Shown piece after piece: positions 7,561-58,530 of a DNA stretch of 64,000 nucleotides. The stretch comes from a virus. The number at the start of each line of letters is the position of its first letter. Position 1 is the first letter of the stretch. The stretch spans positions 1 to 64,000 of the IMG/VR virus record IMGVR_UViG_3300020220_003756. The stretch is one strand, 5' to 3'. The notes below the pieces were generated by a model. That model saw nothing but the letters and a program-made list of their open reading frames with translations, did no database searches and was not told the origin of the DNA. Both the position numbers and the translations under genes were made by a program.

Positions 7561-8247
7561 TTATCGTATTTCTGGGAACAGACAATCCTGGATAAACACA
7601 CGGACATCTTTTTCTGACAGACCCAGGCTGACCATGACTCTAGGTGTGTGCGGATTCTGCTTTTGGTTCTGTGCGTAATAGTTTTGTTCGAATGTATTGT
7701 CTGTGATGGTCCATGCAGTGTCCATAACTGTGGCAGTATAGTTATATACGCACTTTTCTGCTAGCTCTCGGATCTGTGCCAGTTCGGTTTCGTCCTGTAC
7801 ATTGCCCGCGGCCACCATCGAGGGACTGAATATGCGCTGAGCCCAATCTGGCAGAGCACGTTCTTTTCGCCACTCTAGGCTAGCTACTTCTTCTGCGAAC
7901 CATTCGCACATAGGATGTTCACGATCTGAGGTAGGTGAATAATCTACGAAACAGCCCGTGATCTTGTTTTTACCTGCGATGACATCAAATCCGAATATAG
8001 GAGCAGGATTGTTTGTGTGTGGAAATACGCAACAGTGCATCATCCACAGTCCCTTGGTTTCTCGGGCGTCGACTACGTCTACGTGTGCCCTTCGATAGAA
8101 TGTTCCAGTCCACACTCTATTGACCCAACCGGGCTGATTGAATCTGTCCATACCCGGTTCGAATATTTCTAATCCTGTCCGAGAAAAATGATTTATGAAT
8201 AGATCTTGTATCTCAATCAGCGTCTGCCAGACATTACTGTTTGACAT
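7561..8247 (-). CDS. pcyX: ferredoxin-dependent bilin reductase, PcyX/PcyA-like
   Basis: RRAHVD...MMHCC...PIFGFDVIAG...DYSP and NQKQNPHT; directly downstream of heme oxygenase. Confidence 0.85.
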   Translation of the reverse strand: MSNSNVWQTLIEIQDLFINHFSRTGLEIFEPGMDRFNQPGWVNRVWTGTFYRRAHVDVVDARETKGLWMMHCCVFPHTNNPAPIFGFDVIAGKNKITGCFVDYSPTSDREHPMCEWFAEEVASLEWRKERALPDWAQRIFSPSMVAAGNVQDETELAQIRELAEKCVYNYTATVMDTAWTITDNTFEQNYYAQNQKQNPHTPRVMVSLGLSEKDVRVFIQDCLFPEIR

Positions 8248-8773
8248 ACTGCATCATCTCTTCAAAAAATCTAGCAGCGTATCCGAAACATAATTTTGCT
8301 TCGTCAGCCATCGAGTCGTCGACTTTGGCACGTATCTTTGTTTTTAAATCATCGACGTTCTCGAATTGATAATATTTTCCGCTGCCTGGGATTCTTTTAG
8401 CGATCATCTGACCGCCAGCTAGATCTCCCATATGTCTGACATAGATATGGGACATTAGTTTTCTAACATCATCTTTGATACTGATGATATATTTTGTATA
8501 ATCTTTAACTACTGGACACAGTGCTGGTGCAACTTCACCTTTCCATAGTTCTTCGAAATCTGTTCGGATCGCTTTGCTACGTAAAATTCCCGGAACATCG
8601 TTTAAAATTCCGTGAGGCATAGTACAGACCTCTAATATTTCATACATAGGAAATTGATTATATAGATACGTCGCGTATAATTGAGGATCGATATCACCTT
8701 TAAACAAAATTTTAACAAATGGTCTTGTTTCGGCGAATTTGTGTTCTTCGTAAGTAAGTTCTTTTAGGCTCAT
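8234..8773 (-). CDS. hemO: heme oxygenase
   Basis: TxEEHxxAE heme ligand and HIYVRHMGDLAGGQ distal-helix motif. Confidence 0.92.
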   Translation of the reverse strand: MSLKELTYEEHKFAETRPFVKILFKGDIDPQLYATYLYNQFPMYEILEVCTMPHGILNDVPGILRSKAIRTDFEELWKGEVAPALCPVVKDYTKYIISIKDDVRKLMSHIYVRHMGDLAGGQMIAKRIPGSGKYYQFENVDDLKTKIRAKVDDSMADEAKLCFGYAARFFEEMMQYVKQ

Positions 8774-8784
8774 AATATATGTAT

Positions 8785-9045
8785 TTAATCTTTAAGCCTT
8801 AACAAAAAAAATAATAAATCTTTTTCGTCATTTAATTTCAGAATATATTCTCGATCAGTCCTTTGATAATTCCATTTTTTTCCCAGTGGTCCTAGGCTTT
8901 CTTCAAAAAATTGCAACATCTTTTTTCGACCTCGGGTACCATTAGATTCAGATACTGGACGCCTGTCTCTAAAATGCACCCAAAATCCGAATCTACGGGC
9001 TCCGGTTGATTTATATTTTAATAATTTAACATCATCGAATGTCAT
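8785..9045 (-). CDS. hypothetical protein
   Basis: 86 aa, ATGA-coupled to clpS. Confidence 0.65.
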   Translation of the reverse strand: MTFDDVKLLKYKSTGARRFGFWVHFRDRRPVSESNGTRGRKKMLQFFEESLGPLGKKWNYQRTDREYILKLNDEKDLLFFLLRLKD

Positions 9046-9344
9046 TGTTCCATTTCTAAAGTAATTTGCAAAGGAAAACCATGACTGCGAGCTAATGTGG
9101 TAGATTCGATTCCTTTTGTTTCTGCTATCTCGTGCGTATAAACACCTACTACCGCGCTGCCTGTTTGATGTATTTCTAAAGTTAAATTTTTAGCAGTGGT
9201 TTCGTCGTGTCTAAAAATCTGAGTTAACAGATCGATAACGAACTCCATCGGCGTTTTATCATCGTTCAAAAATATAACTTTCCACATTTTCGGAGGTTGT
9301 AGACTAGTTGTTATTTTTTCGTCGATTTGTGCATCTATAGACAT
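9042..9344 (-). CDS. clpS: Clp protease adaptor ClpS
   Basis: PKMWKVIFLNDDKTPMEFV...IHQTG...GFPL. Confidence 0.95.
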   Translation of the reverse strand: MSIDAQIDEKITTSLQPPKMWKVIFLNDDKTPMEFVIDLLTQIFRHDETTAKNLTLEIHQTGSAVVGVYTHEIAETKGIESTTLARSHGFPLQITLEMEQ

Positions 9345-9359
9345 CTTTTCTCCCGAGTT

Positions 9360-9383
9360 GAGTTCGGAGTCTCCCCCGAACTC
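9360..9383. terminator. hairpin between hsp20 and clpS
   Basis: GAGTTCGG...CCGAACTC 8-bp stem; no clear U tract. Confidence 0.45.
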
Positions 9384-9396
9384 TGTGACTAATACT

Positions 9397-9834
9397 TTAT
9401 TTGATTTCGACGATATCGATTACTCGAGGTTTCATTTCTTCTGGAATTTCTCGCTCGATTCTGATCTGTAGAATACCGTTTTTAATAGTTGCGCTGACGA
9501 TTTTCATATGTTCAGCGAGAGTAAACTTACGCTCGAAATCTCTAAGAGCCAACCCTCTATGTAAAAACTCTACTGTAACATCATCGTTCTTATCTCTTTC
9601 GCCAATGATGGTAAGTTCGTTTTGTTCTACAGTGACCTTGATTTCGTCTTTTTCGAAGCCAGTGACAGCCATCTCGATCTCGTAGAGATTTTCCTGTAGT
9701 TTGGCTACATTGTATGGAGGATAATTATTGCTGATCTGGTTGGAGAATCGACGCTCCATGTCATCGAAAATCCTATCAAAGCCAACTAATGCTCTGTTTA
9801 ATGCCTGTGTGTCAAAACGTTGTAATTGTGTCAT
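9397..9834 (-). CDS. small heat shock protein (Hsp20/IbpA family)
   Basis: NYPPYNV, FLHRGLAxRxFxRxFTLAE, NGIL motifs. Confidence 0.95.
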   Translation of the reverse strand: MTQLQRFDTQALNRALVGFDRIFDDMERRFSNQISNNYPPYNVAKLQENLYEIEMAVTGFEKDEIKVTVEQNELTIIGERDKNDDVTVEFLHRGLALRDFERKFTLAEHMKIVSATIKNGILQIRIEREIPEEMKPRVIDIVEIK

Positions 9835-9840
9835 TTTAAA

Positions 9841-9860
9841 ATCTCCTTAAAAAGTAAGAT
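9841..9860 (-). promoter_or_regulatory. ROSE-like RNA thermometer hairpin (hsp20)
   Basis: AUCUU-A-CUU-UUU-AAG-GAGAU pairs over the SD; perfect TATAAATA upstream at 9912-9919. Confidence 0.7.
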
Positions 9861-9944
9861 AAGTTTGGGCCCTATGCCCTTGTGCTGAACCCATATAGGT
9901 GTCCTGCAACATATTTATATTTTACTGTCTCTGTCTGTGCGAGT

Positions 9945-9967
9945 CAATGGGGGACTGGCCCCCATTG
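9945..9967. terminator. GC-rich hairpin after groEL
   Basis: CAATGGGGG-ACTGG-CCCCCATTG. Confidence 0.6.
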
Positions 9968-9972
9968 GATCA

Positions 9973-11896
<1,924 letters not shown>

Positions 11897-11903
11897 TCGT
11901 ATT

Positions 11904-11923
11904 TTCTCCTTATAAAGTAAGAT
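11904..11923 (-). promoter_or_regulatory. ROSE-like RNA thermometer hairpin (groES)
   Basis: ATCTTACTTTATAAGGAGAA. Confidence 0.7.
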
Positions 11924-11952
11924 TAACGAGGGACCCGATGGTGTCCCTATTA

Positions 11953-13845
11953 TTAATTCTTGGTTTCTGTGTATGTAGCATCGACTACATTATCATCCTG
12001 TGATTCCGGATTGGGTTTTTCTGCTTGTTCTTTAGCAGTACGTTTTTCCAAAAGAATCTTCATCGCAGGATAAACTTTTTCTAGTTCAGATTTAATCTTA
12101 TCTGTGTCATCCCCTTTGACTGCTTGTTCAACTGAGGCAACAGCAGATTCGATTTCTGATTTTTCTGAGTCTGTGAGTGTGTCTTTAAATTCCTCTACGT
12201 CACGTTTTACTTCATATACAGTAGATTCTGCTTGATTCCGTGCTTCTATTAATTCTCTGGCTTTTTTGTCTGCATCAGCATTGGCTTCGGCTTCTTTGAT
12301 CATTTTTTCGATTTCTTCTTTGCTAAGACCAGAGTCAGACTTAATCGTGATCTTATTTTCTTTTCCTGTGCCTTTGTCTTTGGCAGAGATGTGCATGATG
12401 CCATTAGCATCGATGTCGAAAGTAACTTCGATCTGTGGCATACCTCTACGTGCCGGTGCGATTCCTTCGAGGTTGAATTCGCCTAGCATTTTGTTATGTT
12501 GAACTAACTCTCTTTCTCCCTGGAATACCTTGATAGTTACAGCAGGTTGATTGTCTTCTGCGGTGGAAAATGTCTGCTGCCCCTTAGTAGGAATAGTGGT
12601 ATTTTTTTGGATGATCTTGGCCATCACACCGCCCAATGTCTCGATACCGAGGCTCAGCGGAGTGACATCTAGCAGAAGAACATCTGTTCGATCACCGCCT
12701 AGCACAGCACCTTGTACTGCGGCACCAACTGCTACCGCTTCGTCGGGGTTAACGTCTTTACGAGGAGCCTTGCCGAACAATTTCTCGACTTCTTCCTGGA
12801 CCTTAGGCATACGGGTCTGACCGCCAACGAGGATGACTTCATCGATGTCTGCAGCCGTAACAGCAGCATCCTTCATAGCGATGCGGCAGGGTTCTAGGCT
12901 GCGTTGGATAAGATCCTCAACTAGGCTTTCTAGTTTAGACCTAGAAATCTTAACTACTAGATGTTTCGGACCAGACGCATCTGCGGTTACATAAGGTAAG
13001 TTAACTTCTGTCTGAGCGCTGTTCGACAGTTCGATCTTGGCTTTTTCTGCAGCATCTTTAAGACGTTGCAATGCTAGGACGTCGTTCTTGAGATCTACAC
13101 CGTTTTCTTTCTTAAACTCATCGACCAAGAAATCCATGATACGTTGATCAAAGTCTTCGCCTCCCAGGAATGTATCACCATTAGTCGACAACACTTCGAT
13201 CTGCTTGTCACCGTCGACATTTGCGATTTCAATGATCGAAACGTCAAATGTACCGCCTCCTAGATCATACACGGCGATTTTTCGATCTTTCTTATCAGTT
13301 TTATCAACACCATAAGCCAGCGCGGCCGCTGTAGGTTCGTTGATGATACGCAGAACTTCTAGACCAGCGATCTGTCCAGCATCTTTGGTTGCCTGTCTTT
13401 GACTGTCATTGAAGTAAGCAGGAACTGTGATAACTGCTTTGGTAACAGTTTCGCCTAGATAATCTTCTGCGGTCTTCTTCATCTTGCGAAGGACTTCAGC
13501 AGAGATTTGGGGCGGTGCTAGTTCTTTGCCCTGTGCTCGAACCCATGCATCTCCGTTTTTAGATTCCATAATTTCGTATGGCATTAAATCGATATCTTTT
13601 TGTACAGCCTGTTCTTTGAACTTGCGACCGATCAACCGTTTGGCTGCATAAATGGTGTTTTTGGGATTAGTTACGGCCTGTCTTTTAGCGCTGGCTCCGA
13701 CCAGGATTTCGTTTTCTGTGTAGGCAACGATGCTAGGTGTAGTGCGAGCACCTTCTGAATTTTCGATTACTTTGGATTTTCCTGCCTCGATGATGGCCAC
13801 GCACGAATTGGTGGTTCCGAGGTCAATACCGATGATCTTAGACAT
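11953..13845 (-). CDS. dnaK: chaperone DnaK (Hsp70)
   Basis: [25 protein letters not shown]. Confidence 0.99.
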
Positions 13846-14269: not shown

Positions 14270-14512
14270 TCATGTTAATATACTCTTGATCAAGGGCGGC
14301 AAATAGATCACTGTGATCACTGTCTGTACAGTGAGAAGACTCCACTTGCGCCACATGATGGCCTGTATGGCCCAACCTAGATTGGAAACAAACAGGAACC
14401 ATATATTTAGTGGATAGATATTCATAGAAGTCAAAACCGCACCTACTATTAGGATTGCGGTTATTGACCACTCAAACCAGAATTGCCAGGGTTTTCTAAT
14501 CCATTCGATCAC
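14270..14512 (-). CDS. small three-TM membrane protein
   Basis: 80 aa, hydrophobic, ATGA-coupled to the VUT gene. Confidence 0.75.
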   Translation of the reverse strand: MIEWIRKPWQFWFEWSITAILIVGAVLTSMNIYPLNIWFLFVSNLGWAIQAIMWRKWSLLTVQTVITVIYLPPLIKSILT

Positions 14513-15210
14513 TTCATGGCCCTAGCTTCTTCACGCCATGGTGCAAGACTGACCAAAGGTGTCAGTGCCAAGATCACTCCTAGTTTGAACAGGGTGCTGC
14601 CGCTCACGATCCTAGCGATGGCCTTGTTGAGATCCATGGCATCACCACCCAACAGCGGAGGAATAAACACAAAGGCAAACAGTACAAATAAAACAGCATC
14701 CACTGGCAAGCTGACTAGGTTGCTGACAAATGTTCTTGCCCACGAACCCCAGTCACGTTCCCACAGCACTTGATACACCCAGGTGTTGACCCACTGGCTG
14801 ACCACAGTGGCGATTTCTGAACCGATCACTATGCCCAGGCTCATCTTCCACACAGCATCAAAGTTCACACTGGGTCTAAATGCCGGAGCAGGAATAAAGG
14901 TCATGGCATACATGAATGCTGCCACAGCAAGATTCAAGACCACACCTATTAGAATCACTCGTTGCACCACAGCAGCACCGGCCAGTTTGTGCAACATGTC
15001 TCTGACCACAAACACCACAGCAAATAGCATGGCGCCGGCAGGTGTCACTACCCAACCAAAATCCAGGAACTTGGCAGCAGCAAAGTCTGCCACGGTCATG
15101 GCCATGATTAGAGTGGCACTCAAACCAATGATCCAGTACAGTGTTCGGTTGTCCAGTTCGATCAAAGGTCGATCAAAGAACTTATCGTTCAAGTTAGTTA
15201 CTACACTCAT
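14509..15210 (-). CDS. VUT/YhhQ-family (queuosine precursor) transporter
   Basis: multi-TM; AAKF..FG..VTPAG...RD, VSQWVN, SNLVS..VD..LF pattern. Confidence 0.8.
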   Translation of the reverse strand: MSVVTNLNDKFFDRPLIELDNRTLYWIIGLSATLIMAMTVADFAAAKFLDFGWVVTPAGAMLFAVVFVVRDMLHKLAGAAVVQRVILIGVVLNLAVAAFMYAMTFIPAPAFRPSVNFDAVWKMSLGIVIGSEIATVVSQWVNTWVYQVLWERDWGSWARTFVSNLVSLPVDAVLFVLFAFVFIPPLLGGDAMDLNKAIARIVSGSTLFKLGVILALTPLVSLAPWREEARAMK

Positions 15211-15231
15211 TTCAGTCTCCTCTTTAAAAAA

Positions 15232-15885
15232 TTAAAATTTTGCATGATCACTCTGTCTTTCTTGGTAGTGATCACAGATGTCTGTGAACATGCATTGATC
15301 GCATTTGGGTGATCTGGCACGGCAGATATACTTGCCGTGATCTATCAACCATTCATGAGCACCCCAGCGATACTGATCAGGGGTATCCTGCTCTAATGTT
15401 TCTGCGGTCTTGTGTTCTGCTTTTGTATTTGCTATGCCCAGTCTGTTGCTGATACGATGCACATGGGTGTCCACGGCGATAGCAGGTTCATTGAACACAA
15501 AACGCATCATGATGTCTGTGCTTTTGCGACCCACGCCTGCCAACTGCATCAACTGCTTTCTATCATTGGGCACTGTGCCGGCATGACGATCCAACAGTTG
15601 CTGACTCATCAACTTCAGATTCTTGGCCTTGTTGTTGTACATACCAGCAGGCCGTATTAATTGTTTTAATTTGTCTATGTCCAGGGATAGGATTTCTTCC
15701 GGAGTTTCAGCATGAGCGAATAAGTTAGCGCAGGCTTCAGCGGTGCGTTCATCTTTAGTCTGGGCACTCAGTGTCACACCCACCAGACTCTTGAACGCAT
15801 TGTTGTAGATTTTTTCCCGCGGCGGATTATTTGGCACAGGATTTTGTGCGTGAAATCGTTCGTAGACTGTGACTATTTTAGACAT
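15232..15885 (-). CDS. nth: endonuclease III (HhH-GPD glycosylase, 4Fe-4S)
   Basis: LSAQT, LAGVGRKS, VDTHVHR, C-x6-C-x2-C-x5-C. Confidence 0.95.
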   Translation of the reverse strand: MSKIVTVYERFHAQNPVPNNPPREKIYNNAFKSLVGVTLSAQTKDERTAEACANLFAHAETPEEILSLDIDKLKQLIRPAGMYNNKAKNLKLMSQQLLDRHAGTVPNDRKQLMQLAGVGRKSTDIMMRFVFNEPAIAVDTHVHRISNRLGIANTKAEHKTAETLEQDTPDQYRWGAHEWLIDHGKYICRARSPKCDQCMFTDICDHYQERQSDHAKF

Positions 15886-16351
15886 TGGCCGCTTGTAGTT
15901 TCTTTTTATTGGCTACTGCCCAGTTGCCTCTCAGTGCAAAATAAAGTCCACCAATCCATAGGCTGAAGTGCAAGTAGTCAGAGAGAATAAAAGCCCATAG
16001 ACTTTCAGGCTTGAGCACTACCCAGATCACTCCGGTCATCACGCAACACATGACCAGGCCGCAGAATCTAGTGAGTGCATCTCCCAGTTCGGCAACATAG
16101 GGCAAGTCCCGAATCTTAGCCACAGTGGCTAATCCTCCCGCCAGTAGACCAACACCGGCTAGTATTTCACCAAAGACCACGAACCACCATACCAAGGCCG
16201 GCAGACCAAATGCTGCTCCACCCGCAGGATCAAATGGCATCTTGGCCAAGCCCTGTGTGATAAACACCACGGCCAAAGGTATTCGCAACAGCAGGTTGCT
16301 CCAGTCAAAGTCTGGCAATGTGTGCCAATAATTTTTTAGAACCAGTTTCAT
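15878..16351 (-). CDS. DoxX-family membrane protein
   Basis: LLRIPLAVVFITQGLAK...GE; start revised to MKLVL (AAGGA SD). Confidence 0.8.
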   Translation of the reverse strand: MKLVLKNYWHTLPDFDWSNLLLRIPLAVVFITQGLAKMPFDPAGGAAFGLPALVWWFVVFGEILAGVGLLAGGLATVAKIRDLPYVAELGDALTRFCGLVMCCVMTGVIWVVLKPESLWAFILSDYLHFSLWIGGLYFALRGNWAVANKKKLQAANV

Positions 16352-16364
16352 AATATGTTTCCTT

Positions 16365-16889
16365 TCAAATGCGACGGCAAATAGAGACCGCACCGCGCGA
16401 TCCCAGGTCAATCAACTTTACCCATAATTTCAATGCAGGGTTGATGGATCTAACACGCGACCCAGCATCATGCTTGTGATGCACTTCGTCGGCCTGGCAT
16501 TTTTTAAGTACGACTACCAGATCGTTGTGTTCGGGATAGGAAGATAACTGATCAATCTGTTGTTGATAATGATGGTCCACAAAAGTTTCCACAGCTTGTA
16601 TGGTAGCATACACTGTATTGCGTCCAAATAGAGCTGGCACAGCACCAGTGAGCCAACCTGCTATTCGCCAAGGAATCTGCAGACGACTTTGCTGTGACAC
16701 ATGTACCAGGGACTCCATCATTCTTAAATGCTGTCGTTCCACAGCTCCATGTGCATCAGCAAACTCCAACAATTCGGGGTCTTCCCGCCACAGGGCCACT
16801 GCTTTTATACCCCGATAGATTTCTACCGCTCCAACTTCACCTGCATGATCAGAGCGTAATTCCTGATTGATGTAGTTACTGATTGACAC
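16365..16889 (-). CDS. coq7: demethoxyubiquinone hydroxylase (Coq7/Clk-1 di-iron family)
   Basis: LRSDHAGExGA..IY, ExxH, VETFVDHHY, DExHH. Confidence 0.9.
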   Translation of the reverse strand: MSISNYINQELRSDHAGEVGAVEIYRGIKAVALWREDPELLEFADAHGAVERQHLRMMESLVHVSQQSRLQIPWRIAGWLTGAVPALFGRNTVYATIQAVETFVDHHYQQQIDQLSSYPEHNDLVVVLKKCQADEVHHKHDAGSRVRSINPALKLWVKLIDLGSRGAVSICRRI

Positions 16890-16890
16890 T

Positions 16891-17187
16891 TTACTTCAGT
16901 GTAGCAGTATAGGCCGCGATGTTTTTAATATCGGCTGGAGATAGTTGTGCAGCAAAGCCCCACATCAACTGACTCTGTGCGCCAATCTGTTGCTTGTTTT
17001 TGTAGGCAGTGAGTTTCCTCTCAATGTCTGCCGCTGGCTGGCCGGCCAACTTGGGACCTGCACCACCTTGACCTTGTGCGCCGTGACAGGCCACACAGGT
17101 AGCGTACTTGACTTTGCCTTGGGCCGCATCTTGTGCCATGGCTGGTACGCTTAACGCGACCAAACTTGCAAAAATAAATGATTTCAT
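16891..17187 (-). CDS. periplasmic monoheme cytochrome c (c553/c4-like)
   Basis: signal peptide, CVACH, PKLAGQ, distal Met. Confidence 0.93.
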   Translation of the reverse strand: MKSFIFASLVALSVPAMAQDAAQGKVKYATCVACHGAQGQGGAGPKLAGQPAADIERKLTAYKNKQQIGAQSQLMWGFAAQLSPADIKNIAAYTATLK

Positions 17188-17197
17188 TTTGTTTCCT

Positions 17198-47997: not shown

Positions 47998-48007
47998 TTG
48001 TGAAAGA

Positions 48008-48718: not shown

Positions 48719-49344
48719 TAGTAGTTACCTGAGGCTAAAACTATTTTACAGATATGTTCCAGTCGCTCGATATGTTCGAAGGATCTCCATGGAGATTGAT
48801 CTATGGCTACAACCCCGTGACCTTTGATACCTACGATATCGTACTTAATCTCACCTGTAGTTTCATTTAAACCCAAGTTTTTGTGACACTGATCTCCTAG
48901 TTCCTGTGATATAGGAGGAACATCACCTACGTTCGTTGCTACCCTTGTATATCGACTAAGTTCTGGAAAATCTTTTACTAGTTCACTTAATTCTATACCG
49001 GCATGCATAGCGGCCACACAATAAGTCGGATGAAGGTGTGTTACAACTCTAACTTCATCTTTATGAATAGATTTTTGTAGTCCAAAATGTAAAGGCATTT
49101 CTCCTGTGGGCTTTAGTCCCTGTGAGATATCGCTGTAGGGCATCTCTTGCCATAATGTAACAGGACCTTTTAAAATTTTTATCTTCTTAAATTGGTCTGG
49201 TTGTAGTGTCTGTTTGCGAACACCACTGGGTGTGACATAAAAATGATCGCGGTCGTGATGACGGATACTGATATTACCATCACGACTCGTAATCCAATTA
49301 CGCTTATATGCCTCTACTAGAATATCACAGATAGTTTCTAACAT
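48718..49344 (-). CDS. class II aldolase/adducin family protein
   Basis: DGNIS, TPSG, E..LH, HLHP, HG. Confidence 0.9.
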   Translation of the reverse strand: MLETICDILVEAYKRNWITSRDGNISIRHHDRDHFYVTPSGVRKQTLQPDQFKKIKILKGPVTLWQEMPYSDISQGLKPTGEMPLHFGLQKSIHKDEVRVVTHLHPTYCVAAMHAGIELSELVKDFPELSRYTRVATNVGDVPPISQELGDQCHKNLGLNETTGEIKYDIVGIKGHGVVAIDQSPWRSFEHIERLEHICKIVLASGNY

Positions 49345-50642
49345 TAATGAAACTGTTCCTCTTCTGTGCTGCCTTTCAATGCCTGTGTTGAAGCATTTTT
49401 TTCTATAGTAGTAGTCACTCTATCGAAATATCCCGTACCTACTTCTCGCTGATGCTTGACTGCTTCAAATCCTCTGTCAGCGGCAGCGAACTCTTTCTCT
49501 TGTAGTTCCACAAATGCTGGCATGCCATCACGAGCATAGCCATAAGCCATATCAAACATATGGTAGTTAAGATTATGAAACCCAGCGAGTGTAATGAACT
49601 GGAACTTATAACCCATTGCTCCAAGCTCGCGCTGGAAACGGCTAATTGCGTCTGCATCTAGATTCTTCCTCCAATTAAATGATGGTGAACAGTTGTAGGC
49701 CAACATCTTGCCGGGATAGTGTCGGTGGATCTCTTCGGCAAACCTGCGTGCGAAATCAAGATCGGGTTTCCCTGTTTCACACCATACGAGATCTGCATAG
49801 GGGCAGTAGGCCAGTGCTCTGCTGACTGCTTGGTCGAATCCTGCTCGGGTTCTAAAGAAACCTTCCACAGTTCTTTCACCAGTAAGAAAAGGAACGTCGT
49901 TAGGATCAACATCGCTAGTGATAAGGTCACCAGCTTCGGCATCAGTACGAGCGATAACGAGAGTAGGCACGCCCAAGACATCAGCAGCGAGACGAGCGGC
50001 AACAAGTTTATTGACTGCTTCTCTGGTTGGTACAAGGACTTTTCCTCCCATATGTCCGCATTTCTTGACTGATGCTAACTGATCTTCGAAGTGTACTCCT
50101 GCAGCACCTGCTCGGATCATGGCTTTCATCAGTTCAAAAGCATTTAACACACCACCAAAGCCTGCTTCAGCATCAGCGACTATGGGTGCGAAGAAATCTC
50201 TATCTCCCGTCTGTTCCATCCACTGTATCTGATCTGCTCTGCGGAATGTGTTGTTTATTCTATTTACTACCGCAGGCACTGAATCTGCTGGGTATAGACT
50301 CTGATCTGGATACATCTCTCCTGCTAGATTAGCATCACCTGCTACCTGCCATCCGCTTAGATATATTGCTTTGAGTCCTGCTTTGACCTGCTGTAGGGCC
50401 TGCATGCCTGTTAGAGCACCTAGTGTATTGACATATGGCTCATCGTGCAAGAGTCGCCATAGTTTTTTGGCTTGATCGACAGCAAACTGATCTGGATAAA
50501 CTCGCGAACCTTGTAGATTTACTACATCCTCTGCTGTGTAGGGTCTTTTAACCCCACTCCATCTGTCATTGGTGGCCCATTCTTTTTGTAGACGATATGC
50601 CAGCCAACTTCTATCTGCTGTCTGTGAGTGTGTTGGTTCCAT
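49344..50642 (-). CDS. aceA: isocitrate lyase
   Basis: [33 protein letters not shown]. Confidence 0.98.
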
Positions 50643-50690
50643 TTTGCTTCTCCTAATTTGTGTCCAGTATTTATGGCAGAGCAGCAGAGG

Positions 50691-50719
50691 TTGACAAAAT
50701 CATTAACTGAGCATATAAT
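50691..50719 (+). promoter_or_regulatory. consensus sigma70 promoter, leaderless; divergent from the aceA late promoter
   Basis: TTGACA-17-TATAAT-6-ATG; minus-strand TAAATA at 50668-50673. Confidence 0.85.
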
Positions 50720-50725
50720 AACAAT

Positions 50726-51454
50726 ATGAAAAAAAGCATCGCAGCTCTGTCCATTTTAATTGCTTGTCAGAGTTGGGCACAACAATGGCACATCGAAGAA
50801 TCATGGAAATCTGCTGTTGTGCATGTACCAGGAAAATGGTTTTCTTCTAAATTGGAAAATGTAGAAGTAGAAAATCCCATGCCTGTGGTTATATACTTGC
50901 ATGGATGCTCTGGCATTTCTCAGACAGATCAAAGTTGGGCTCGAACATTAAAGGGCATGGGCTTCGTGGTGGTCATGCCCGATTCTTTAGCCATACCCGG
51001 TCGGCAAAGCAATTGCGATACTGTTAATAAAAAAACTAATCTAGGCAAAGTGAATGCTACAGAACTCCGTAGCCGAGAAGTCGAATACGCACTAAAACAA
51101 ATAAGACTCAAACCTTGGGCGGATCAAAGAAGAATCTTTATTATGGGACACAGCGAAGGCGCAGTAGGGGTTACGAGAGTCAACGACGAATTAATCAAAG
51201 GCATAGTGATATCAGGTTTCCCTTGTGTGCATGGCCTTTGGGCAGATAAAAATATTCCAGTTCTGGCGATAGGTTGGAGTGAGGATCCCTGGTTCGGTAA
51301 TAGATATAATCATCGACAGTGTATCGATCATTGGGGTGATCGATCAGATGCTACACAGATAGTTCTAGAAGGTAGAGGGCACGGAACTGCTGAAGAATCC
51401 AGGGCTATAGAAGGTGTCAAAAGTTTTTTTAAAAGGTTAATCAGTGAAAAATAA
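50726..51454 (+). CDS. secreted alpha/beta hydrolase (dienelactone hydrolase-like)
   Basis: signal peptide, LHGCSG, GHSEG nucleophile elbow, D and H of the triad. Confidence 0.85.
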   Translation: MKKSIAALSILIACQSWAQQWHIEESWKSAVVHVPGKWFSSKLENVEVENPMPVVIYLHGCSGISQTDQSWARTLKGMGFVVVMPDSLAIPGRQSNCDTVNKKTNLGKVNATELRSREVEYALKQIRLKPWADQRRIFIMGHSEGAVGVTRVNDELIKGIVISGFPCVHGLWADKNIPVLAIGWSEDPWFGNRYNHRQCIDHWGDRSDATQIVLEGRGHGTAEESRAIEGVKSFFKRLISEK

Positions 51455-52034
51455 AGTTATTTTAACAGACGCAGACGGTGTAATTTTGGATTGGGAGTAC
51501 GCCTTTGATATTTGGATGCAAGAACACGGTTTCCAAAAGCAAGACGGTGGACAGTTCATCTACAATATCGGTCGTCGATACGGCATCGATATGGAGCAGG
51601 GCAAGAAGCTGATTAAAATCTTTAACGAATCGGCATCTGTTGGATTCCTTCCTGCACTACGAGATTCGATGTATTATGTAAAACGACTGCACGAAGAGCA
51701 AGGTTATGTGTTCCACTGCATCACTAGCCTTAGCAAAAACGAAAACGCTCAAAAACTTCGCACGATGAATCTGCAGAAGCTGTTTGGCAAGACAGCCTTT
51801 GCACACTACATCTTCCTAGATACGGGTGAGGACAAAGACGGTGTCCTGCAGGATTACAAAGATTCTGGACTTTGGTGGATTGAGGACAAGATCACTAATG
51901 CAGAAACAGGATTGAATTTAGGATTGAAACCTTTGCTCATGGAACACGGGCATAATATGGATTACGATAACCCATTGATTCCTAGAGTAAAAAATTGGAA
52001 AGATATCTACGAAAGAATCGTAGACAGTGTTTAA
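51444..52034 (+). CDS. HAD-family phosphatase (5'-nucleotidase-like)
   Basis: DADGV, ITS, K, IEDK. Confidence 0.85.
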   Translation: MKNKVILTDADGVILDWEYAFDIWMQEHGFQKQDGGQFIYNIGRRYGIDMEQGKKLIKIFNESASVGFLPALRDSMYYVKRLHEEQGYVFHCITSLSKNENAQKLRTMNLQKLFGKTAFAHYIFLDTGEDKDGVLQDYKDSGLWWIEDKITNAETGLNLGLKPLLMEHGHNMDYDNPLIPRVKNWKDIYERIVDSV

Positions 52035-52137
52035 AGTTTTAAACTTTATACTTTTGTGCTTAGTGGTTTTTGGAATGTGCCTGCTGATCATTCCGATTAT
52101 TGGAATAGTGTTCGGCTTAATAAAAAGCTCACTTTAG
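52027..52137 (+). CDS. 36 aa hydrophobic peptide (not in ORF track)
   Basis: GTG overlapping the previous stop; MFKVLNFILLCLVVFGMCLLIIPIIGIVFGLIKSSL. Confidence 0.4.
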   Translation: MFKVLNFILLCLVVFGMCLLIIPIIGIVFGLIKSSL

Positions 52138-52221
52138 GATGCCATTCCGGGGCACGACTCCCATAACATCCACGCCAGCAGCCGGCGACACCTATGTAAC
52201 GATAACGTCCTAAGGTAGGTG
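52122..52221 (-). ncRNA. candidate ~100-nt structured RNA
   Basis: closing stem UUAGGA-C-GUUAU / AUGGC-A-UCCUAA, inner stems CGCCGG/CUGGCG and GGG/CCC, ends in U5. Confidence 0.6.
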
Positions 52222-52659
52222 TTAGTTGCACCAACTTTGTTTTGCATCACCGTAGTATTCACGGGCTAGTCCGTTGGCGATCAAACCTTGGCGCACACTC
52301 TGTCCATTGACCGTGATGTCACCTAGCACTCGTCCACCGAACTTGTCCCAACCGTATAAGGTGACCTGTATCTTACCTCCCTGTTGTATCAGCTGTGTGG
52401 TCCACTTGCTGGCCATCTGTGCTCGCTGGTCCTCCTGCGGGCACTGGGCACGGTGTCCTTTCTCTGGGGTATCCACACCAAAAATCCTGACAGCCAGTTC
52501 TGGCTTTAGGGGTGCTGGTAGGAAGGGTGCGGCAATCACGATGGTGTCGCCGTCTGATACTCTAATGACCTGCGCATCGTAGGTCGCAGAGTTCTTGGGC
52601 ATCTTCTGCGCCAGGGCGATCATTGGTACTGCCAGTAATAATAGTAGTAGTTTTTTCAT
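52222..52659 (-). CDS. secreted thermonuclease (SNase family)
   Basis: signal peptide, DGDT, VRIFGVDTPE, DKFGGRVL. Confidence 0.93.
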   Translation of the reverse strand: MKKLLLLLLAVPMIALAQKMPKNSATYDAQVIRVSDGDTIVIAAPFLPAPLKPELAVRIFGVDTPEKGHRAQCPQEDQRAQMASKWTTQLIQQGGKIQVTLYGWDKFGGRVLGDITVNGQSVRQGLIANGLAREYYGDAKQSWCN

Positions 52660-52674
52660 GATATTTCCTTTTTG

Positions 52675-53325
52675 TTATTTATTCTTAGTCCAGAAGCCCA
52701 GGCGTTCTCCAGCAGGGCTGGCATACCACGAATATCCCTGGGGATTCGCGAGACTGTCCCCTCGCCAGACGGGTATTATTTCGTCCGATCCATGATTCGC
52801 GAAATCATCGTTCCAGCGCAGATGCACTTCTATGGCTTTGGTACCTATGTATTCTACATTGACCCAGGCTGCCTGTGTTTCTAGTCCTTTTAGAAAACTC
52901 GGAAACGGTAATCTATCTGATACCTTAGACCAGCGGCTGAACCTATCTAGCCTGTCGGGATCGTTCCGGAATCCCTCCACGGTGAGTTCCTGCTGTCCCC
53001 AGTGATAGTCTACAGAGATGTGCCTGCCCACAAGCACTTCGCTCCAGAAATATCCGTCTGGTACTACTCCATCGTCACCTCGATGCATGAACATTTTTTG
53101 GGCGCCTCGGCTCATCATCCTTATATTAGTGATGGGACGCACGATATAATAACCGTCTCGGGGTACAGGTATACCTGCGGGAGCAGCCATTATGTCCTGC
53201 TTACGGGCTACGATCAGTTTGTCGTAGATCCAAAGCCAATCGCGAGGACAGCGATTCCACACGTCTCTGTCACTGACCTGATCCACGGTCTGTTTCTTTG
53301 AACTGATAGAACCAATTGGTATCAC
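52675..53325 (-). CDS. hypothetical protein (possible ATP-grasp-like)
   Basis: WIYDKL, YIVRP, SVDY, NVEY...IEVHLR; true start probably GTG 53286. Confidence 0.7.
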   Translation of the reverse strand: MIPIGSISSKKQTVDQVSDRDVWNRCPRDWLWIYDKLIVARKQDIMAAPAGIPVPRDGYYIVRPITNIRMMSRGAQKMFMHRGDDGVVPDGYFWSEVLVGRHISVDYHWGQQELTVEGFRNDPDRLDRFSRWSKVSDRLPFPSFLKGLETQAAWVNVEYIGTKAIEVHLRWNDDFANHGSDEIIPVWRGDSLANPQGYSWYASPAGERLGFWTKNK

Positions 53326-53923
53326 CGCCCGTGCTCCATTTGCTGACGTTCTCCACTGACCATATATCTGCGGGGATCTTGAAATCTGGTGTTTTCAGTT
53401 CATTGGGCACGAGACTGACATCATACCATAGGCAGCGATTGTTGGGTTGGCAGGCAAACTGTCCATTGTCTAGTTTGATAAAATTATAGCTCTTGTGTTC
53501 CTGCGCTCCTTCCGTGAATGTGACATCCAGCCTGTTGTGGTCGGGCGCAGCGAAGTCTATGGTGAACAGATAGTTGCCCAGATGAAACTTGCGATCCTTG
53601 CCATAATATTTGACCTTGAGTCCACGGAGATTTGATTTCTCTATGACTGCCATATCGTAGCCTAGGCAGTCCCAGATCTGGAGATTATCCAAGGGCAAAT
53701 ATTCAGACACGGGCTTCCACACGAACGCTGAGATGGGCAGTTTGTCGTAGAGCGCACCGTAGTCTGTGAGCATACATTCTATGCGGAAGGCCTGTCCTTT
53801 GATCGCTTTGGCTGTGATCCAGAAGCAGGGTTCTAGTTCACCCTGTCGCCTTTCCTGATTGTAAAGGAACTCCGCACGGACGAAACACTTCACGGGAGGT
53901 ATGTTGGCTACTAGGAAAGTCAT
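53270..53923 (-). CDS. conserved hypothetical phage protein
   Basis: ANIPP, YDKLPISAF, WDC, EHK, LDNGQFACQPNNR. Confidence 0.8.
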   Translation of the reverse strand: MTFLVANIPPVKCFVRAEFLYNQERRQGELEPCFWITAKAIKGQAFRIECMLTDYGALYDKLPISAFVWKPVSEYLPLDNLQIWDCLGYDMAVIEKSNLRGLKVKYYGKDRKFHLGNYLFTIDFAAPDHNRLDVTFTEGAQEHKSYNFIKLDNGQFACQPNNRCLWYDVSLVPNELKTPDFKIPADIWSVENVSKWSTGGDTNWFYQFKETDRGSGQ

Positions 53924-54096
53924 TACAACCTACCTATTTCGACTCTTTCTTCAGTTTCAGCACAATTAGGACAACTGCATTCTGTACAGTCACAGTCGTC
54001 AGTCATGCAACTGTTTCCGCAGTGTTGGGTACAGCCGCATCGACATTTTGCTTGCAATTTGAAATATGCTTCGTTGTCGTCTATGAAGTTTTCCAT
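53923..54096 (-). CDS. metallothionein-like Cys-rich 57 aa protein (not in ORF track)
   Basis: CRCGCTQHCGNSCMTDDCDCTECSCPNC (10 Cys); AAGGAG SD; TAATG-coupled to the next gene. Confidence 0.8.
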   Translation of the reverse strand: MENFIDDNEAYFKLQAKCRCGCTQHCGNSCMTDDCDCTECSCPNCAETEERVEIGRL

Positions 54097-54138
54097 AATT
54101 TATCGCTCCTTCAATTCTAATCCCTGCAAACTTTCTCA

Positions 54139-56250
54139 TCATGCGTGTTCCTGCCAAGTTACAGTTCCTGTGGCTTGACCGTCGGCCACAGAGCTTATAG
54201 CGGCCAAACACCATATATCTGACACGCCAGCTAATGTTCTACCTAATTGTTGACTAAAATCAATTTCGTTGCCCATGGATAGACTGCCACCTCTAGTTGG
54301 GCCTATAAACATACCCTGATCTATCACAGTGCCCCCAGTAAGTGCAGTGGCTGATAAGTCATATTCGACTGAACTATCTGCTCCTGCTGACTGGAAACTT
54401 GCTCCAGTTAAAGTAGGATTTAGAATAATTCTATATGAATAATTTGCATCATTCAGTCCAAGCACTTCAAATTTAGCTGGAACTACAACTGCATCTAAAA
54501 ACTGACTTTTTAATCTAATATTTATTAACGGTCGGTAAATTGAATCGCTTAGATTTTTTCCAGACAAACTATTTCCTATGGATCTAGGTATACTGCGATT
54601 TACGTATCCGCCCTCAGAAATAACCGTGCTACAAATAACCTGCATAGCAGTGTACTCTGATACTTCTCTTTCCGATTCGTCAACTAACAGTTCATATCTT
54701 ACAGGCAAGGTAGCAGTGGTCATGTAAACCAAAGCTAGATTTCCAGCATGATGGAATGTATGACATACTATGAAGTTACCGTCGATTACAAAACCAGTTC
54801 TAACTGATCCAACTCCTAGCCATTCTAAATCGCACCACCATATCTGTGCTTTAGTTACGTTTAGTGTTTTTCCGCTGGCACCTGTGCCATCAAGCTTGTC
54901 TCCATTCCAGCTACTTTGCGGAATTTTCTCTGTGCTGTCGTCTACAGAGCCTGTTGTGTACTTACGTATGACTATGTTCTTTATGGTGTCATTAGTTTCA
55001 AAATACACTCCGTTCTCTGTGCCAAAGAATCCAACACGTTGCGTTACACCTATTGTTGGATTGTTCATTACAAAGGATGCCATTACCAAAAGACTTTTAC
55101 CTGGTTGGTAACTGAACACCCTCTTGCTTTCTCTGACACAGGTTCCACCGGCACTTGTGGACATGGTGATTGTGCTAGTAAATGCATCAAATGTGATCGA
55201 ACCAGAGGATGTAGTTGATTCACTCCATTTTAGAGGATCATCTCTATATCTCAGAGCACCATCAAACAAGGTGTAAGGATCGCTAACACGAAGCCGGGCT
55301 ACAGCATCTAGGTTAGTGCCAGTGATAGTGGTTTCCGTAGTGCCCGTTATAGGTAGAGGATTAATGCTTGATACTGTTTGCCCATCTAAAGTTAAGGAAA
55401 CTTGTCCTATAATGCTAAGACTACTTTCGCCGCAGTTCTGTATCTCTAAACAGGTATTAGTGATGTTTACATCTAATGTAGTGTCTACGCAGTTCTGCAC
55501 TCCTATACAGGTGTTGCGGAGATCTACGGGGAATGGATTTTCTACAGTGACCGCCACACCTTCAACGGTGATATTTCCAGAAACACTTAACACCCCATCT
55601 GTGCCGCAATTCGTCACAGGTATACAGGTGCCTTCTGGAAAGGCTACTATCAACGGATTCAAATCTGACACTGGCAGACCTTCTAGGCCAGTTTCTATCT
55701 TTACTATTCCTACTACGCTGAGACTGCCTTCTCCACAGTTTTGTATAGATATACAGTCGTCGCCTAGAGTCACTGGTAAAGGATTGTTGTTCGCCACAGG
55801 CAATTCGTTGATAAGGATTATAGAATTAGCATTGGTGTTTAACCTGGTACCGTCGCAGTTCATGACCTTGAGGCAGGTGTCTGTGATGTCTACTGGTATG
55901 GGATTGCCCGTGGCCAGCGGTAGTCCTCCTACCAGCAATCCCACGTTGCCGCTAATCACCCAGGGGCTTGTGCCCTGATAGACCGTGCCCTGTATGGCCA
56001 GCGTGTTGCCGGAATCCGTCTTCACACTGACTTCTGGCATCGAGTTGATATCTACAGGTGGCATTGAAACAACATTAATATTAGTATCAATATTGATATC
56101 ACCTTGTACAATGATATTACCTTGGAAGTTAGAAATTACCCTCAGCGCAGGTTCGCCCGTGCTCAGGTAATCCATAGCGGTATGGAGGTCTGAAACATTG
56201 GGCTCCCAACTGTGTTGGTAGTTGGTTGAATTGGGATTCATTATTCCCAT
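54139..56250 (-). CDS. large beta-rich probable virion protein with internal repeats
   Basis: ~40-aa NP.PV...C-x5-C repeats; C-domain DAVARLRVS...YQPGKS...WNGDKLDG...EWLGVG. Confidence 0.8.
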   Translation of the reverse strand: MGIMNPNSTNYQHSWEPNVSDLHTAMDYLSTGEPALRVISNFQGNIIVQGDINIDTNINVVSMPPVDINSMPEVSVKTDSGNTLAIQGTVYQGTSPWVISGNVGLLVGGLPLATGNPIPVDITDTCLKVMNCDGTRLNTNANSIILINELPVANNNPLPVTLGDDCISIQNCGEGSLSVVGIVKIETGLEGLPVSDLNPLIVAFPEGTCIPVTNCGTDGVLSVSGNITVEGVAVTVENPFPVDLRNTCIGVQNCVDTTLDVNITNTCLEIQNCGESSLSIIGQVSLTLDGQTVSSINPLPITGTTETTITGTNLDAVARLRVSDPYTLFDGALRYRDDPLKWSESTTSSGSITFDAFTSTITMSTSAGGTCVRESKRVFSYQPGKSLLVMASFVMNNPTIGVTQRVGFFGTENGVYFETNDTIKNIVIRKYTTGSVDDSTEKIPQSSWNGDKLDGTGASGKTLNVTKAQIWWCDLEWLGVGSVRTGFVIDGNFIVCHTFHHAGNLALVYMTTATLPVRYELLVDESEREVSEYTAMQVICSTVISEGGYVNRSIPRSIGNSLSGKNLSDSIYRPLINIRLKSQFLDAVVVPAKFEVLGLNDANYSYRIILNPTLTGASFQSAGADSSVEYDLSATALTGGTVIDQGMFIGPTRGGSLSMGNEIDFSQQLGRTLAGVSDIWCLAAISSVADGQATGTVTWQEHA

Positions 56251-56253
56251 TGA

Positions 56254-56676
56254 TTAACTCCAGGGTCTACCGTTGACTGCTCCGCCCGGGTTGGGATTAT
56301 CTACCACCGAGTTACCTACATATTTGGTTGGTAGATCTGTAAGGGTATAGGTGCTTCTTGGATTACCGTCTGCTGCTCTAGTAGCCGCGGCAATTTCTAA
56401 TTTTTGTATCTGTCTATCTTCTTTGGTACCTACTTGATTTGGAGTGCAAAGCACAGTGTCTCCATCTACTATGCCTAGAGTAGTCAGTGAGGTACTGCTG
56501 TCTCCATATACAGTATCATTTATTGCAGGGTTATTTAATAAACTGATTTTGTAATAGTCAGTGGGTAGCCCTTCATCGGCAGCGATAGCGATAATCAATT
56601 GATCTATGGTGATCGTCAATGCCACTGTGACATCACGTTTTCTGCTGGTAAGCCCTATATAGTATATTGTGGCCAT
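56254..56676 (-). CDS. ubiquitin-like (beta-grasp) domain protein
   Basis: ungapped by-eye alignment of aa 4-44 to ubiquitin 3-43 (11 identities, EGLPTD vs EGIPPD); SL..LGI.DGDTV. Confidence 0.7.
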   Translation of the reverse strand: MATIYYIGLTSRKRDVTVALTITIDQLIIAIAADEGLPTDYYKISLLNNPAINDTVYGDSSTSLTTLGIVDGDTVLCTPNQVGTKEDRQIQKLEIAAATRAADGNPRSTYTLTDLPTKYVGNSVVDNPNPGGAVNGRPWS

Positions 56677-56966
56677 TAAATACTCCCATGAATTCTTATG
56701 CTGTTGCCTCTGATATCATCAACATGTTTGGGTTTGTTTGGACCGCCGCCTGCGGCTGTGGTCACTGCTTCAATGCTGGCATATTCTTCTTTGGGAGTAT
56801 TGGAGTATTCTGTCTCTTCTCTATTGTCGTTTAGATCTACGATCTGGCGGAATCTACGCATGTCATCATCATAGAACTGTTCAGCAGGCACGGGTTCATC
56901 AGCTCGAACTTGATCTTTGCCGTCGATGATATCTAAGATACCTCGTATAAGTTCTGATATCCTCAT
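56676..56966 (-). CDS. hypothetical protein (MRISEL N-terminus)
   Basis: 96 aa, coupled on both sides. Confidence 0.75.
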   Translation of the reverse strand: MRISELIRGILDIIDGKDQVRADEPVPAEQFYDDDMRRFRQIVDLNDNREETEYSNTPKEEYASIEAVTTAAGGGPNKPKHVDDIRGNSIRIHGSI

Positions 56967-57277
56967 TGTATGCCGCCTAGTTGTTTGATACGTGCTAATT
57001 CATCAACTTCTGCGGTTTCAGCATACTTGTTGGCTTTCATATAATCACGTGCAGTATCTAGATAGTCCATGGCTTTGACGATCTTGGCCTGTACCCATTC
57101 TGGCAAGTTTTCGTCCGCATGGATGATACTGTATAATTCTTTAGCAGCATCGTTGATAGTTCTTAAATCGTCTTTGGCCATATCACCTTCACGATCGTAT
57201 TCGCCTTTGTTGTACTCTGCATCAGGATCTACTGGACCGTGATCTTCGTTGGTTTCGCTGTTTACAATATTTGACAT
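56963..57277 (-). CDS. conserved hypothetical phage protein
   Basis: EGDMAK...LPEWVQAKI..A.DYL; GAGG SD. Confidence 0.75.
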   Translation of the reverse strand: MSNIVNSETNEDHGPVDPDAEYNKGEYDREGDMAKDDLRTINDAAKELYSIIHADENLPEWVQAKIVKAMDYLDTARDYMKANKYAETAEVDELARIKQLGGIQ

Positions 57278-57296
57278 GGTATTATCCTCGGTCTAA

Positions 57297-57314
57297 TATT
57301 TATCGGGTTAAATA
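57297..57314. promoter_or_regulatory. back-to-back late promoters
   Basis: TATTTA 57297-57302 (minus) and TAAATA 57309-57314 (plus), 7 nt before the hemA ATG. Confidence 0.7.
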
Positions 57315-57321
57315 ACTTTGT

Positions 57322-58530
57322 ATGATAAACAAAGAGCCCTTCAAACACCTAATACGTGACTTAAAAGATTCAGGAAAATACAGAGTTTTCAACGACATTT
57401 TGCGTGAAAACGGTAAATTCCCCAGCGCCATATGGTATGGCCCTTATGCTATCAAGAATATCGTAAACTGGTGCTCTAACGATTATCTGGGTATGGGGCA
57501 GCACAAGGTAGTTATAGATGCTATGAAAACTGCTTTAGAAATGACTGGCGCAGGTTCTGGGGGTACTAGGAACATAGGCGGTACCAGCCATTATCATGTG
57601 GCCTTAGAGCACGAACTGGCCCAACTGCATAATAAAACCGGAGCATTGCTGTTTAGTTCGGCGTATGTGGCCAATGAATGGTCCATGATAGCCCTGAGCA
57701 AGATAGTGCCAAATATTCAGTTTATATCTGACAGTAACAATCACAATAGCCTTATCGTTGGCATACAACATAGTCGGGCACCTAAACAGATATTCCATCA
57801 TAATGATATGCAGGATTTAGAAGATAAACTAGCAGCATCTAGGCTAGCGGGATTTAATCCCTGTGTGGTTTTTGAATCGATATATTCCATGGATGGAGAT
57901 GTTTCACCTATTAGAGAAATCTGCGATCTAGCAGACAAATATCAGGCCATAACTTACATAGATGAAGTTCACGCTGTGGGCATGTATGGCGACCACGGAG
58001 CCGGCAAAGTAGAAGAACTAGGTTTAGAAGATCGCATTGATTTTGTCAACGGTACATTGGGCAAAGCATTCGGTGTCCAAGGTGGATATATCGCTGCTGA
58101 CAAAGACATAATCGATACCATAAGATCAGTTGCCGCTGGGTTTATATTCACTACCAGTATAAGTCCTGTACTCTGTGCAGGAGCATTGGCCAGTGTGCGT
58201 TTCCTCAAAGAACACGATGAGGTGAGAAAAAAGCATCAAGAACGAGCGAGAAAATTAAAGACTCGCTTATCGGAAAATGGAATCCATGTTATGGAATGTT
58301 CTACCACACATATCGTTCCTGTTTTAGTGGGTGAAGCAAAGAAGTGTAAACAGATCAGCGATGATCTATTAAATCAATATAATATATATGTACAGCCGAT
58401 TAATTATCCTACTGTTGACGTTGGGACTGAACGGTTGCGCTTTAGTCCTACTCCATTCCATGACGAGGCAATGATAGAGGACTTGATCACTGCGCTCAAA
58501 GACGTGTTCAGTAAAAACGATTTAACTTAA
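57322..58530 (+). CDS. hemA: 5-aminolevulinate synthase (Shemin/C4 pathway)
   Basis: [44 protein letters not shown]. Confidence 0.96.

Follow-up and report, generated by a model that had tools for sequence, protein, structure and literature searches.

Does a phage that carries genes for isocitrate lyase (ICL), 5-aminolevulinate synthase (ALAS), heme oxygenase and a bilin reductase run them as a single tetrapyrrole pipeline? We addressed this question for 64,000 nucleotides of viral DNA (hereafter the window), which represent the first 64 kb of the 73,530-base IMG/VR record IMGVR_UViG_3300020220_003756. An earlier note had placed aceA, hemA, hemO and pcyX in one such possible route, in which ICL could provide both substrates of ALAS, and had also noted a cytochrome c gene. 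Our analysis points, with good though not full confidence, to a different arrangement: a freshwater jumbo phage of a probable Burkholderiales host that uses the C5 route, in which a known tetrapyrrole set is present as a 'broken cassette', ICL is separate and the cytochrome c is an add-on. The enzyme genes concerned are the following.

7561–8247, minus strand: PcyX-type ferredoxin-dependent bilin reductase, 228 aa (PF05996, 55.2 bits vs 31)
8234–8773, minus strand: heme oxygenase, short at 179 aa (PF01126, 59.7 bits vs 23)
49344–50642, minus strand: isocitrate lyase, 432 aa (NF011645, 767 bits vs 562; KKCGH at residue 193)
57322–58530, plus strand: 5-aminolevulinate synthase (viral AlaS), 402 aa (TIGR01821, 573 bits vs a cut-off of 338.55)

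All four genes are real and look intact, as judged by family scores and kept residues, in agreement with the earlier note. ICL retains KKCGH, which we take to be its catalytic motif. ALAS stays below the cut-off of each sister model (KBL, 320 vs 460; BioF, 309 vs 426; SPT, at most 229 vs at least 500), and its best solved structures are the bacterial ALAS 7x98 and 2bwn. In the alignment with 2bwn, Lys248 (within GTLGKAFGV), His142, Asp214 and His217 are unchanged, the last three presumably being active-site residues (R. capsulatus numbering). The bilin reductase finds its best structure in PcyX 5owg (237 bits, E 2.4e-69; PcyA, 62 bits, E 4.8e-16) and keeps residues aligned with PcyX Asp55, His69 and Asp86 (in AHVDVVD, MMHCC and GFDVIAG; the numbering offset of 8 residues is deduced), of which we assume His69 and Asp86 to be PcyX residues. 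Heme oxygenase aligns with solved heme oxygenase structures at E 6e-11, and both the proximal His11 (in EEHK) and the distal-helix GDLAGGQ are kept relative to 5kzl and HO-2. The hemO and pcyX genes overlap by 14 nt and form an operon, and the reductase is 50.7% identical to that of Pelagibacter phage Mosig.

Viral enzymes of this kind have been studied by Wegner et al. (2024, Nat Commun 15:8783; PMC11480375), who name Lys248 of AlaS and Asp55 of PcyX and report the loss of heme-feedback residues for many viral AlaS. In the window ALAS, the heme-feedback site His342 is replaced by Lys341, and no Cys occurs beyond residue 342, so that none is C-terminal; the protein is therefore a vAlaS as defined in that paper (phage-encoded, without His342 and/or Cys400). 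Because the PcyX residues are kept in the reductase, phycoerythrobilin is its predicted product. Homologous vAlaS, vHemO and vPcyA/X are active, and complementation of E. coli by viral ALAS has already been published (PMC11480375); by homology to these assayed relatives, the window enzymes would be active as well.

The DNA is that of a phage, as the earlier note had held. Phage markers are found throughout the contig, comprising virion proteins (phrog_1645 at 54139–56250; phrog_14154), endolysin, exonucleases, a DNA polymerase III alpha fragment, ribonucleotide reductase and DNA ligase. Nearly every gene lies on the minus strand, and GC is 41–46%. Whole-record searches revealed a gene order common to the window and IMG/VR records of 353,123, 363,943 and 399,796 bases. 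CheckV rates these three relatives as 98–100% complete and the record of the window as 21% complete; the window thus covers about 20% of a jumbo phage genome of about 350–400 kb.

We determined the distribution of the genes from both directions. Relatives of ALAS occur on 92 and relatives of the bilin reductase on 369 IMG/VR contigs; locus counts were taken from the best 80 of each. The 153 distinct contigs underlying these 160 loci include 31 records of 62 kb or more, all of which served as the lineage set. ALAS is present in 21 of the 31 lineage records, in five of the six with a completeness of 70% or more and in all three with 98% or more. ICL is present in eight of the 31, in none of the six and in none of the three. 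From these counts, ALAS and hemO–pcyX are inherited together within the lineage, and ICL is not. Relatives of ICL occur in 121 IMG/VR stretches, of which we searched all 25 with a contig of at least 85 kb (four are classed as proviruses by IMG/VR). ALAS is found in one of the 25, itself a member of the window's lineage, and the bilin reductase in none; the three ICL-bearing records that are at least 91% complete contain neither. The co-occurrence anticipated in the earlier note is therefore seen for ALAS with hemO–pcyX, whereas aceA is distributed independently, and with this independence the ICL link falls.

The tetrapyrrole set as such, and the idea that it spares tRNA-Glu, are already known. 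According to Wegner et al., viral alaS occurs with hemO and pcyA/X in a cassette or a broken cassette, or by itself, and their Supplementary Data 1 includes freshwater phages of 325–342 kb and 40–42% GC that carry all three genes but not as a cassette (PMC11480375). The window resembles this viral set in its feedback-free ALAS and in side-by-side hemO and reductase genes at another site of a large aquatic phage genome. Marine IMG/VR loci carry ALAS of 63–65% identity, and the metagenome number of one of them recurs in a table of that paper. Two differences are apparent: (i) methanotrophs (alpha- and gammaproteobacterial) and pelagiphages are named there, and 'betaproteobacteria' is used 0 times, whereas the host hints here are betaproteobacterial; and (ii) the freshwater CB_2 reductase assayed there is a PcyA, not a PcyX, whereas the window reductase keeps PcyX residues. 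The word 'isocitrate' is absent from that paper.

Three further systems can be compared. According to the available passages of Chen et al. (2020, bioRxiv 10.1101/2020.02.13.942896), huge freshwater phages carry adjacent ho1 and pcyX-like genes, and ALAS too, as does the window; those phages are linked to methanotrophs, some with pmoC, whereas no pmoC was seen on the window contig. Mosig (EXVC030M) has hemO beside pcyX as in the window but is a 141 kb marine SAR11 phage. The hemO–pcyA–alaS island of Bradyrhizobium sp. ORS278 (PMC11480375) unites the same three functions on one genome, but it is cellular and lies beside a phytochrome gene, whereas no phytochrome or bilin-binding protein was recognized beside the window operon: the neighbouring frames 6170–7585, 5309–6103, 3016–5376 and 8785–9045 match no family at E ≤ 1, and the Atlas matches of 6170–7585 are viral hypothetical clusters only. 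GenBank phages yielded no ALAS, their best matches (35%) being KBL or BioF, partly in records with apparent bacterial contamination. The window adds a freshwater case, probably from a betaproteobacterial phage, to a class of viral helper genes that is already published, and the link of ICL to the tetrapyrrole set is removed.

The host was approached through a transfer-messenger RNA (tmRNA) gene and through the relatives of ICL.

28106–28466, minus strand: two-piece (permuted) betaproteobacterial-type tmRNA (RF01850, 171.5 bits vs a gathering cut-off of 84; ARAGORN agrees)

The RF01850 (beta_tmRNA) match spans model positions 1–331, RF04321 (tmRNA_permuted) reaches 139.8 bits, and the tag reads ANDAFFGETRLAA. 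This gene was not found by BLAST in the 399,796-base relative (hereafter G020) or in the 160 related viral loci and is thus an accessory gene of the window strain. Its nearest match is a 2.0 Mb genome with a locus GC of 40% (81% identity over 105 nt, 85% over 48 nt). In an even sample of 151 genomes from the GTDB order around one ICL donor, which includes one unpublished genome whose match is below the cut-off, beta_tmRNA exceeds the cut-off in three; all three encode glutamyl-tRNA reductase (GtrR) and none encodes ALAS. The window ICL is 75–78% identical to Burkholderiales ICL. A quick tree joins it to another phage ICL (SH-aLRT 99), with the pair nested in a group dominated by Burkholderiales (support 89–90); a second phage ICL type, 58–61% identical, stands on a long separate branch. 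From the 80 genomes with the nearest cellular ICL we examined 42 chosen by their titles, mostly Burkholderiales plus two Lysobacterales, and ALAS exceeds the cut-off in none of them. Finally, the nearest named proteins to the ferrochelatase of G020 belong to Oxalobacteraceae and Burkholderiaceae (60–64%). Based on beta_tmRNA, the Burkholderiales-nested ICL, GtrR without ALAS and the affinity of the G020 HemH, a betaproteobacterial (Burkholderiales) host using the C5 route is likely but unproven. The earlier note's assignment to betaproteobacteria is accordingly plausible without being settled, and its premise that these bacteria use C5 rather than ALAS agrees with the candidate genomes searched.

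As the candidate hosts possess the C5 route but not ALAS, the window fits the published model for non-alphaproteobacterial hosts, in which viral AlaS is proposed to free tRNA-Glu for translation (PMC11480375). A viral ALAS without the known heme-feedback residues would feed 5-aminolevulinate to the host heme pathway independently of glutamyl-tRNA, HemO would open heme to biliverdin, Fe2+ and CO, and PcyX would reduce biliverdin to a bilin, predicted to be phycoerythrobilin. The timing of expression and the flux from ALAS to heme oxygenase are what we infer from this scheme. A phage mimic of the GluTR dimerisation domain (PF00745) was looked for in 32 records of the lineage and found in none.

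Several results weigh against this reading. ALAS and hemO–pcyX lie 49 kb apart, and joint action is not required; the contigs with bilin reductase outnumber those with ALAS by 369 to 92; and Mosig has hemO–pcyX, yet GenBank phages show no ALAS. A ferredoxin for HemO and PcyX was sought without a Fer2 match on the contig or in five large relatives, and since the CB_2 enzyme is a PcyA, the bilin product here is a prediction. Among the runs listed for 49344–58530, none is an RNA run. Both ICL types occur 7–11 kb from ALAS in several relatives, which is a possible hint of a link; we read this region of the relatives as a variable island. As to the host, beta_tmRNA exceeds the cut-off in 0 of the 42 genomes with the nearest ICL, so that tmRNA and ICL point to different named genomes, and both could originate from a non-host.

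The first three of these results also speak for two independent helper modules, in which ALAS would supply heme proteins, and HemO and PcyX would take iron out of heme already present in the host or produce a bilin with a signalling or antioxidant role. The two loci have separate TAAATA motifs, and hemO–pcyX is constantly linked to ClpS, Hsp20 and DnaK and not to ALAS: heme oxygenase, ClpS and Hsp20 are present at 80 of the 80 reductase loci and DnaK at 78. In addition, co-expression of phage HemO and reductase left the porphyrin build-up caused by vAlaS unreduced (PMC11480375). Such independence is at odds with the presence of ALAS in nearly all of the more complete reductase-bearing records, with marine relatives that hold the three genes as one cassette (PMC11480375) and with a 400 kb relative that adds five heme-synthesis genes. 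We regard two independent modules as a real possibility, although not as the probable one.

The relative in question, G020 (GC 37%), is syntenic with the window from hemO–pcyX via ribonucleotide reductase to ALAS. It also encodes HemB, HemF, HemE beside HemC, and HemH, all far above the Pfam cut-offs, at the following positions of its own record.

7980–8981: HemB
21812–22684: HemF
272081–273184: HemE
273181–274194: HemC
293247–294329: HemH

They are dispersed over the genome, each surrounded by phage genes (helicase, primase, ligase, ClpP, homing endonuclease). HemB, C, E, F and H are absent from the two other complete genomes and from two genomes that are 72–75% complete; for HemD, G020 yields a 19-bit match below the cut-off, and neither HemJ nor HemY was found in any of five genomes (no search covered HemG). 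Close IMG/VR relatives of the G020 HemH and HemB come from G020 itself only, and in a wider protein collection its ferrochelatase has about nine metagenome protein clusters at 69–93% identity. A literature search found no paper on phage HemB, C, E, F or H, and 'ferrochelatase' and 'hemB' are absent from PMC11480375. The gradient within the lineage from ALAS alone to six heme-synthesis genes argues for selection on heme supply itself, for which G020 provides a concrete test genome. Tentatively, and as a somewhat improbable extension, ALAS could, rather than act as a lone helper, open a heme-synthesis programme run by the phage, to which the remaining ~80% of the window's genome may contribute; in that case, the bilin branch would serve to recycle or signal phage-driven flux. 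As a separate observation, the weak 19-bit uroporphyrinogen-III synthase match at 337220–337333 (plus strand) of G020 falls in a 190-aa open frame 2 kb from hemO–pcyX, possibly a divergent HemD.

An integrated pipeline, in which ICL yields succinate (for succinyl-CoA) and glyoxylate (for glycine) and ALAS passes both through heme to HemO and PcyX, is very unlikely. The gap of 6.7 kb between ICL and ALAS in the window would suit it, but the two genes lie on opposite strands with eight genes between them, including a virion protein. ALAS accompanies ICL in seven of the eight ICL-bearing lineage records, a co-occurrence that is uninformative because ALAS is near-universal in the lineage. Seen from ALAS, ICL lies within 10 kb in nine of the 80 loci, whereas from ICL, ALAS is near in one of 80 loci, and ICL has other conserved partners. 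The pipeline would also accord with malate synthase (PF01274) being without a match on the 73.5 kb contig (~21% of the genome) and in the other seven ICL-bearing lineage records; yet no gene leading from succinate to succinyl-CoA or from glyoxylate to glycine was found on the contig either (no succinyl-CoA synthetase, and no aminotransferase besides ALAS). The ICL branch moreover bypasses 2-oxoglutarate dehydrogenase, the direct source of succinyl-CoA. Together with the absence of ICL from the near-complete ALAS-bearing genomes and of ALAS and reductase from nearly all large ICL-bearing ones, this leaves the proposal that ICL feeds both ALAS substrates unsupported.

The conserved partners of ICL are the two genes that follow it.

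48718–49344, minus strand: class II aldolase/adducin-family protein, directly after ICL (PF00596, 93.6 bits; no NCBIfam equivalog reached)
48008–48718, minus strand: DesA-family fatty acid desaturase, the last gene of the cassette (NF049918, 411 bits vs 400)

Stops and starts abut across the three genes of this cassette (48008–50642, minus strand). In 80 viral ICL loci, a desaturase lies within 6 kb of ICL in 33, a class II aldolase in 19 and ALAS in one; the aldolase is at most 650 nt from ICL in 16 of its 19 loci and usually directly downstream. The cassette recurs in huge phages without ALAS and bilin reductase. We place ICL in a mobile cassette of its own with aldolase and desaturase, apparently derived from Burkholderiales. 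Most likely the cassette would reroute the tricarboxylic acid cycle via the glyoxylate branch, using the malate synthase of the host. Four of 33 ICL-bearing records contain malate synthase, and each of these four has the distant ICL type. The available passages of bioRxiv 10.1101/2025.02.27.640493 describe ICL in 98 huge phages (≥200 kb), the freshwater ones without malate synthase, and the window contig is likewise without a malate synthase match; those of a 2017 report describe a marine viral genome with an aceBA operon (PMC5332604). The association of ICL with class II aldolase and DesA desaturase does not appear in these passages of either source.

The earlier note had further assigned a TAAATA promoter to each of aceA, hemA and hemO–pcyX. 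We located the motif at the following positions.

8782–8787, minus strand: TAAATA, 8 nt ahead of the heme oxygenase ATG (conserved in 21 of the 59 distinct upstream sequences from relatives)
50668–50673, minus strand: TAAATA, 25 nt ahead of the ICL ATG, with an AGGAG ribosome-binding site after it
57309–57314, plus strand: TAAATA, 7 nt before the ALAS ATG (kept in 39 of 51 distinct upstream sequences)
57297–57302: second TAAATA copy, in the opposite orientation, towards the open reading frame (ORF) 56963–57277

In relatives, the copy upstream of ALAS lies 4–8 nt from the ATG in 37 of the 39 motif-bearing sequences. Across the whole window TAAATA is not enriched (43 observed vs 51 expected), but 23 of its 50 occurrences on the contig fall in the 40-nt sense-upstream stretches of 113 ORFs, a 17-fold enrichment. 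It ranks first among all upstream hexamers, above Shine-Dalgarno words, whereas other A4T2 permutations occur 1–12 times. At least one copy lies within 40 nt upstream of 22 of the 113 ORFs, including hemO, ALAS and ICL. We take the motif to resemble the core of the T4 late promoter (TATAAATA). In T4-type late promoters, the motif stands at about −10 of late genes and is read by a gp55-type sigma factor. Placement of the motif is as claimed, and we regard it as a putative promoter; since [A/T]TAAATA also precedes the ribonucleotide reductase and polymerase genes, a role as late promoter is tentative. Two side observations concern the motif. Two conserved copies in divergent orientation share the ALAS intergenic region. 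Furthermore, TAAATA often lies just 3–11 nt before an ATG without a Shine-Dalgarno sequence after it (e.g. 7558–7563, 8782–8787 and 23076–23081); if it is a −10-like element, such mRNAs would be leaderless or nearly so.

That the host-like ICL, ALAS, cytochrome c and tmRNA are bacterial DNA fused to a phage contig is so improbable that we set it aside, strongly host-like as these genes are and metagenome-derived as the contig is, because every host-like gene is flanked by phage genes, ALAS and ICL are preceded by the TAAATA motif of the phage, the syntenic 350–400 kb viral records contain the same ALAS, the identical ALAS protein is present on 20 contigs, and 46000–62000 is tiled by contigs from four of four lake metagenome runs (at most six differing letters per piece shown; all four possibly source samples). 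The nine kb from ICL to ALAS are near-identical (share 0.98–1.00) in 20 of 23 listed runs, each of the 20 labelled as a lake-water metagenome; as these are flagged as possible sources, they lend the stretch no independent support. In one run, two contigs diverge into unlike sequence precisely at the ICL–aldolase junction (49345–49346), which suggests co-occurring strain variants with another gene on one side of the border.

The cytochrome c gene named in the earlier note is present, but a role in the set is not borne out.

16891–17205, minus strand: small periplasmic class I c-type cytochrome (PF00034, PF13442; signal peptide, CVACH, distal Met)

Its likelier start is the ATG at 17187. No homologue was found within 10 kb at any of the 80 related hemO–pcyX loci, and none in G020; the cytochrome c is a strain-specific add-on. 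The island around it (14509–17371, minus strand) comprises a queuosine-precursor transporter, endonuclease III, DoxX, a COQ7-like di-iron hydroxylase, the cytochrome c and DUF2970. It is not in G020, only the transporter gene recurs, in one of 80 related loci, and the island appears to be a respiratory or quinone set of recent acquisition.

Some further genes were noted near the main loci. The frame 53270–53923 (217 aa), which carries a PHROG label as ferredoxin, was rejected as such, with no Pfam match at E ≤ 1 and no cluster-like Cys pattern. Beside ALAS and convergent with it lie ADP-heptose pathway genes (58508–61480, minus strand), namely an HldD-like epimerase, a split HldE kinase and adenylyltransferase, GmhB and a cupin, all below equivalog cut-offs. 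A host-like proteostasis and stress set of ClpS, Hsp20, GroEL, GroES, DnaK, ClpP, ribosomal protein S21 and AhpC/AhpD is distributed over 9042–13845, 61477–62067, 20933–21172 and 26850–27923. A DUF454 (YbaN-like) membrane gene (29963–30373, minus strand) lies 27 kb from ALAS in the window, ~900 nt from it in G020 and 2–2873 nt from it in 23 of the 80 related ALAS loci.

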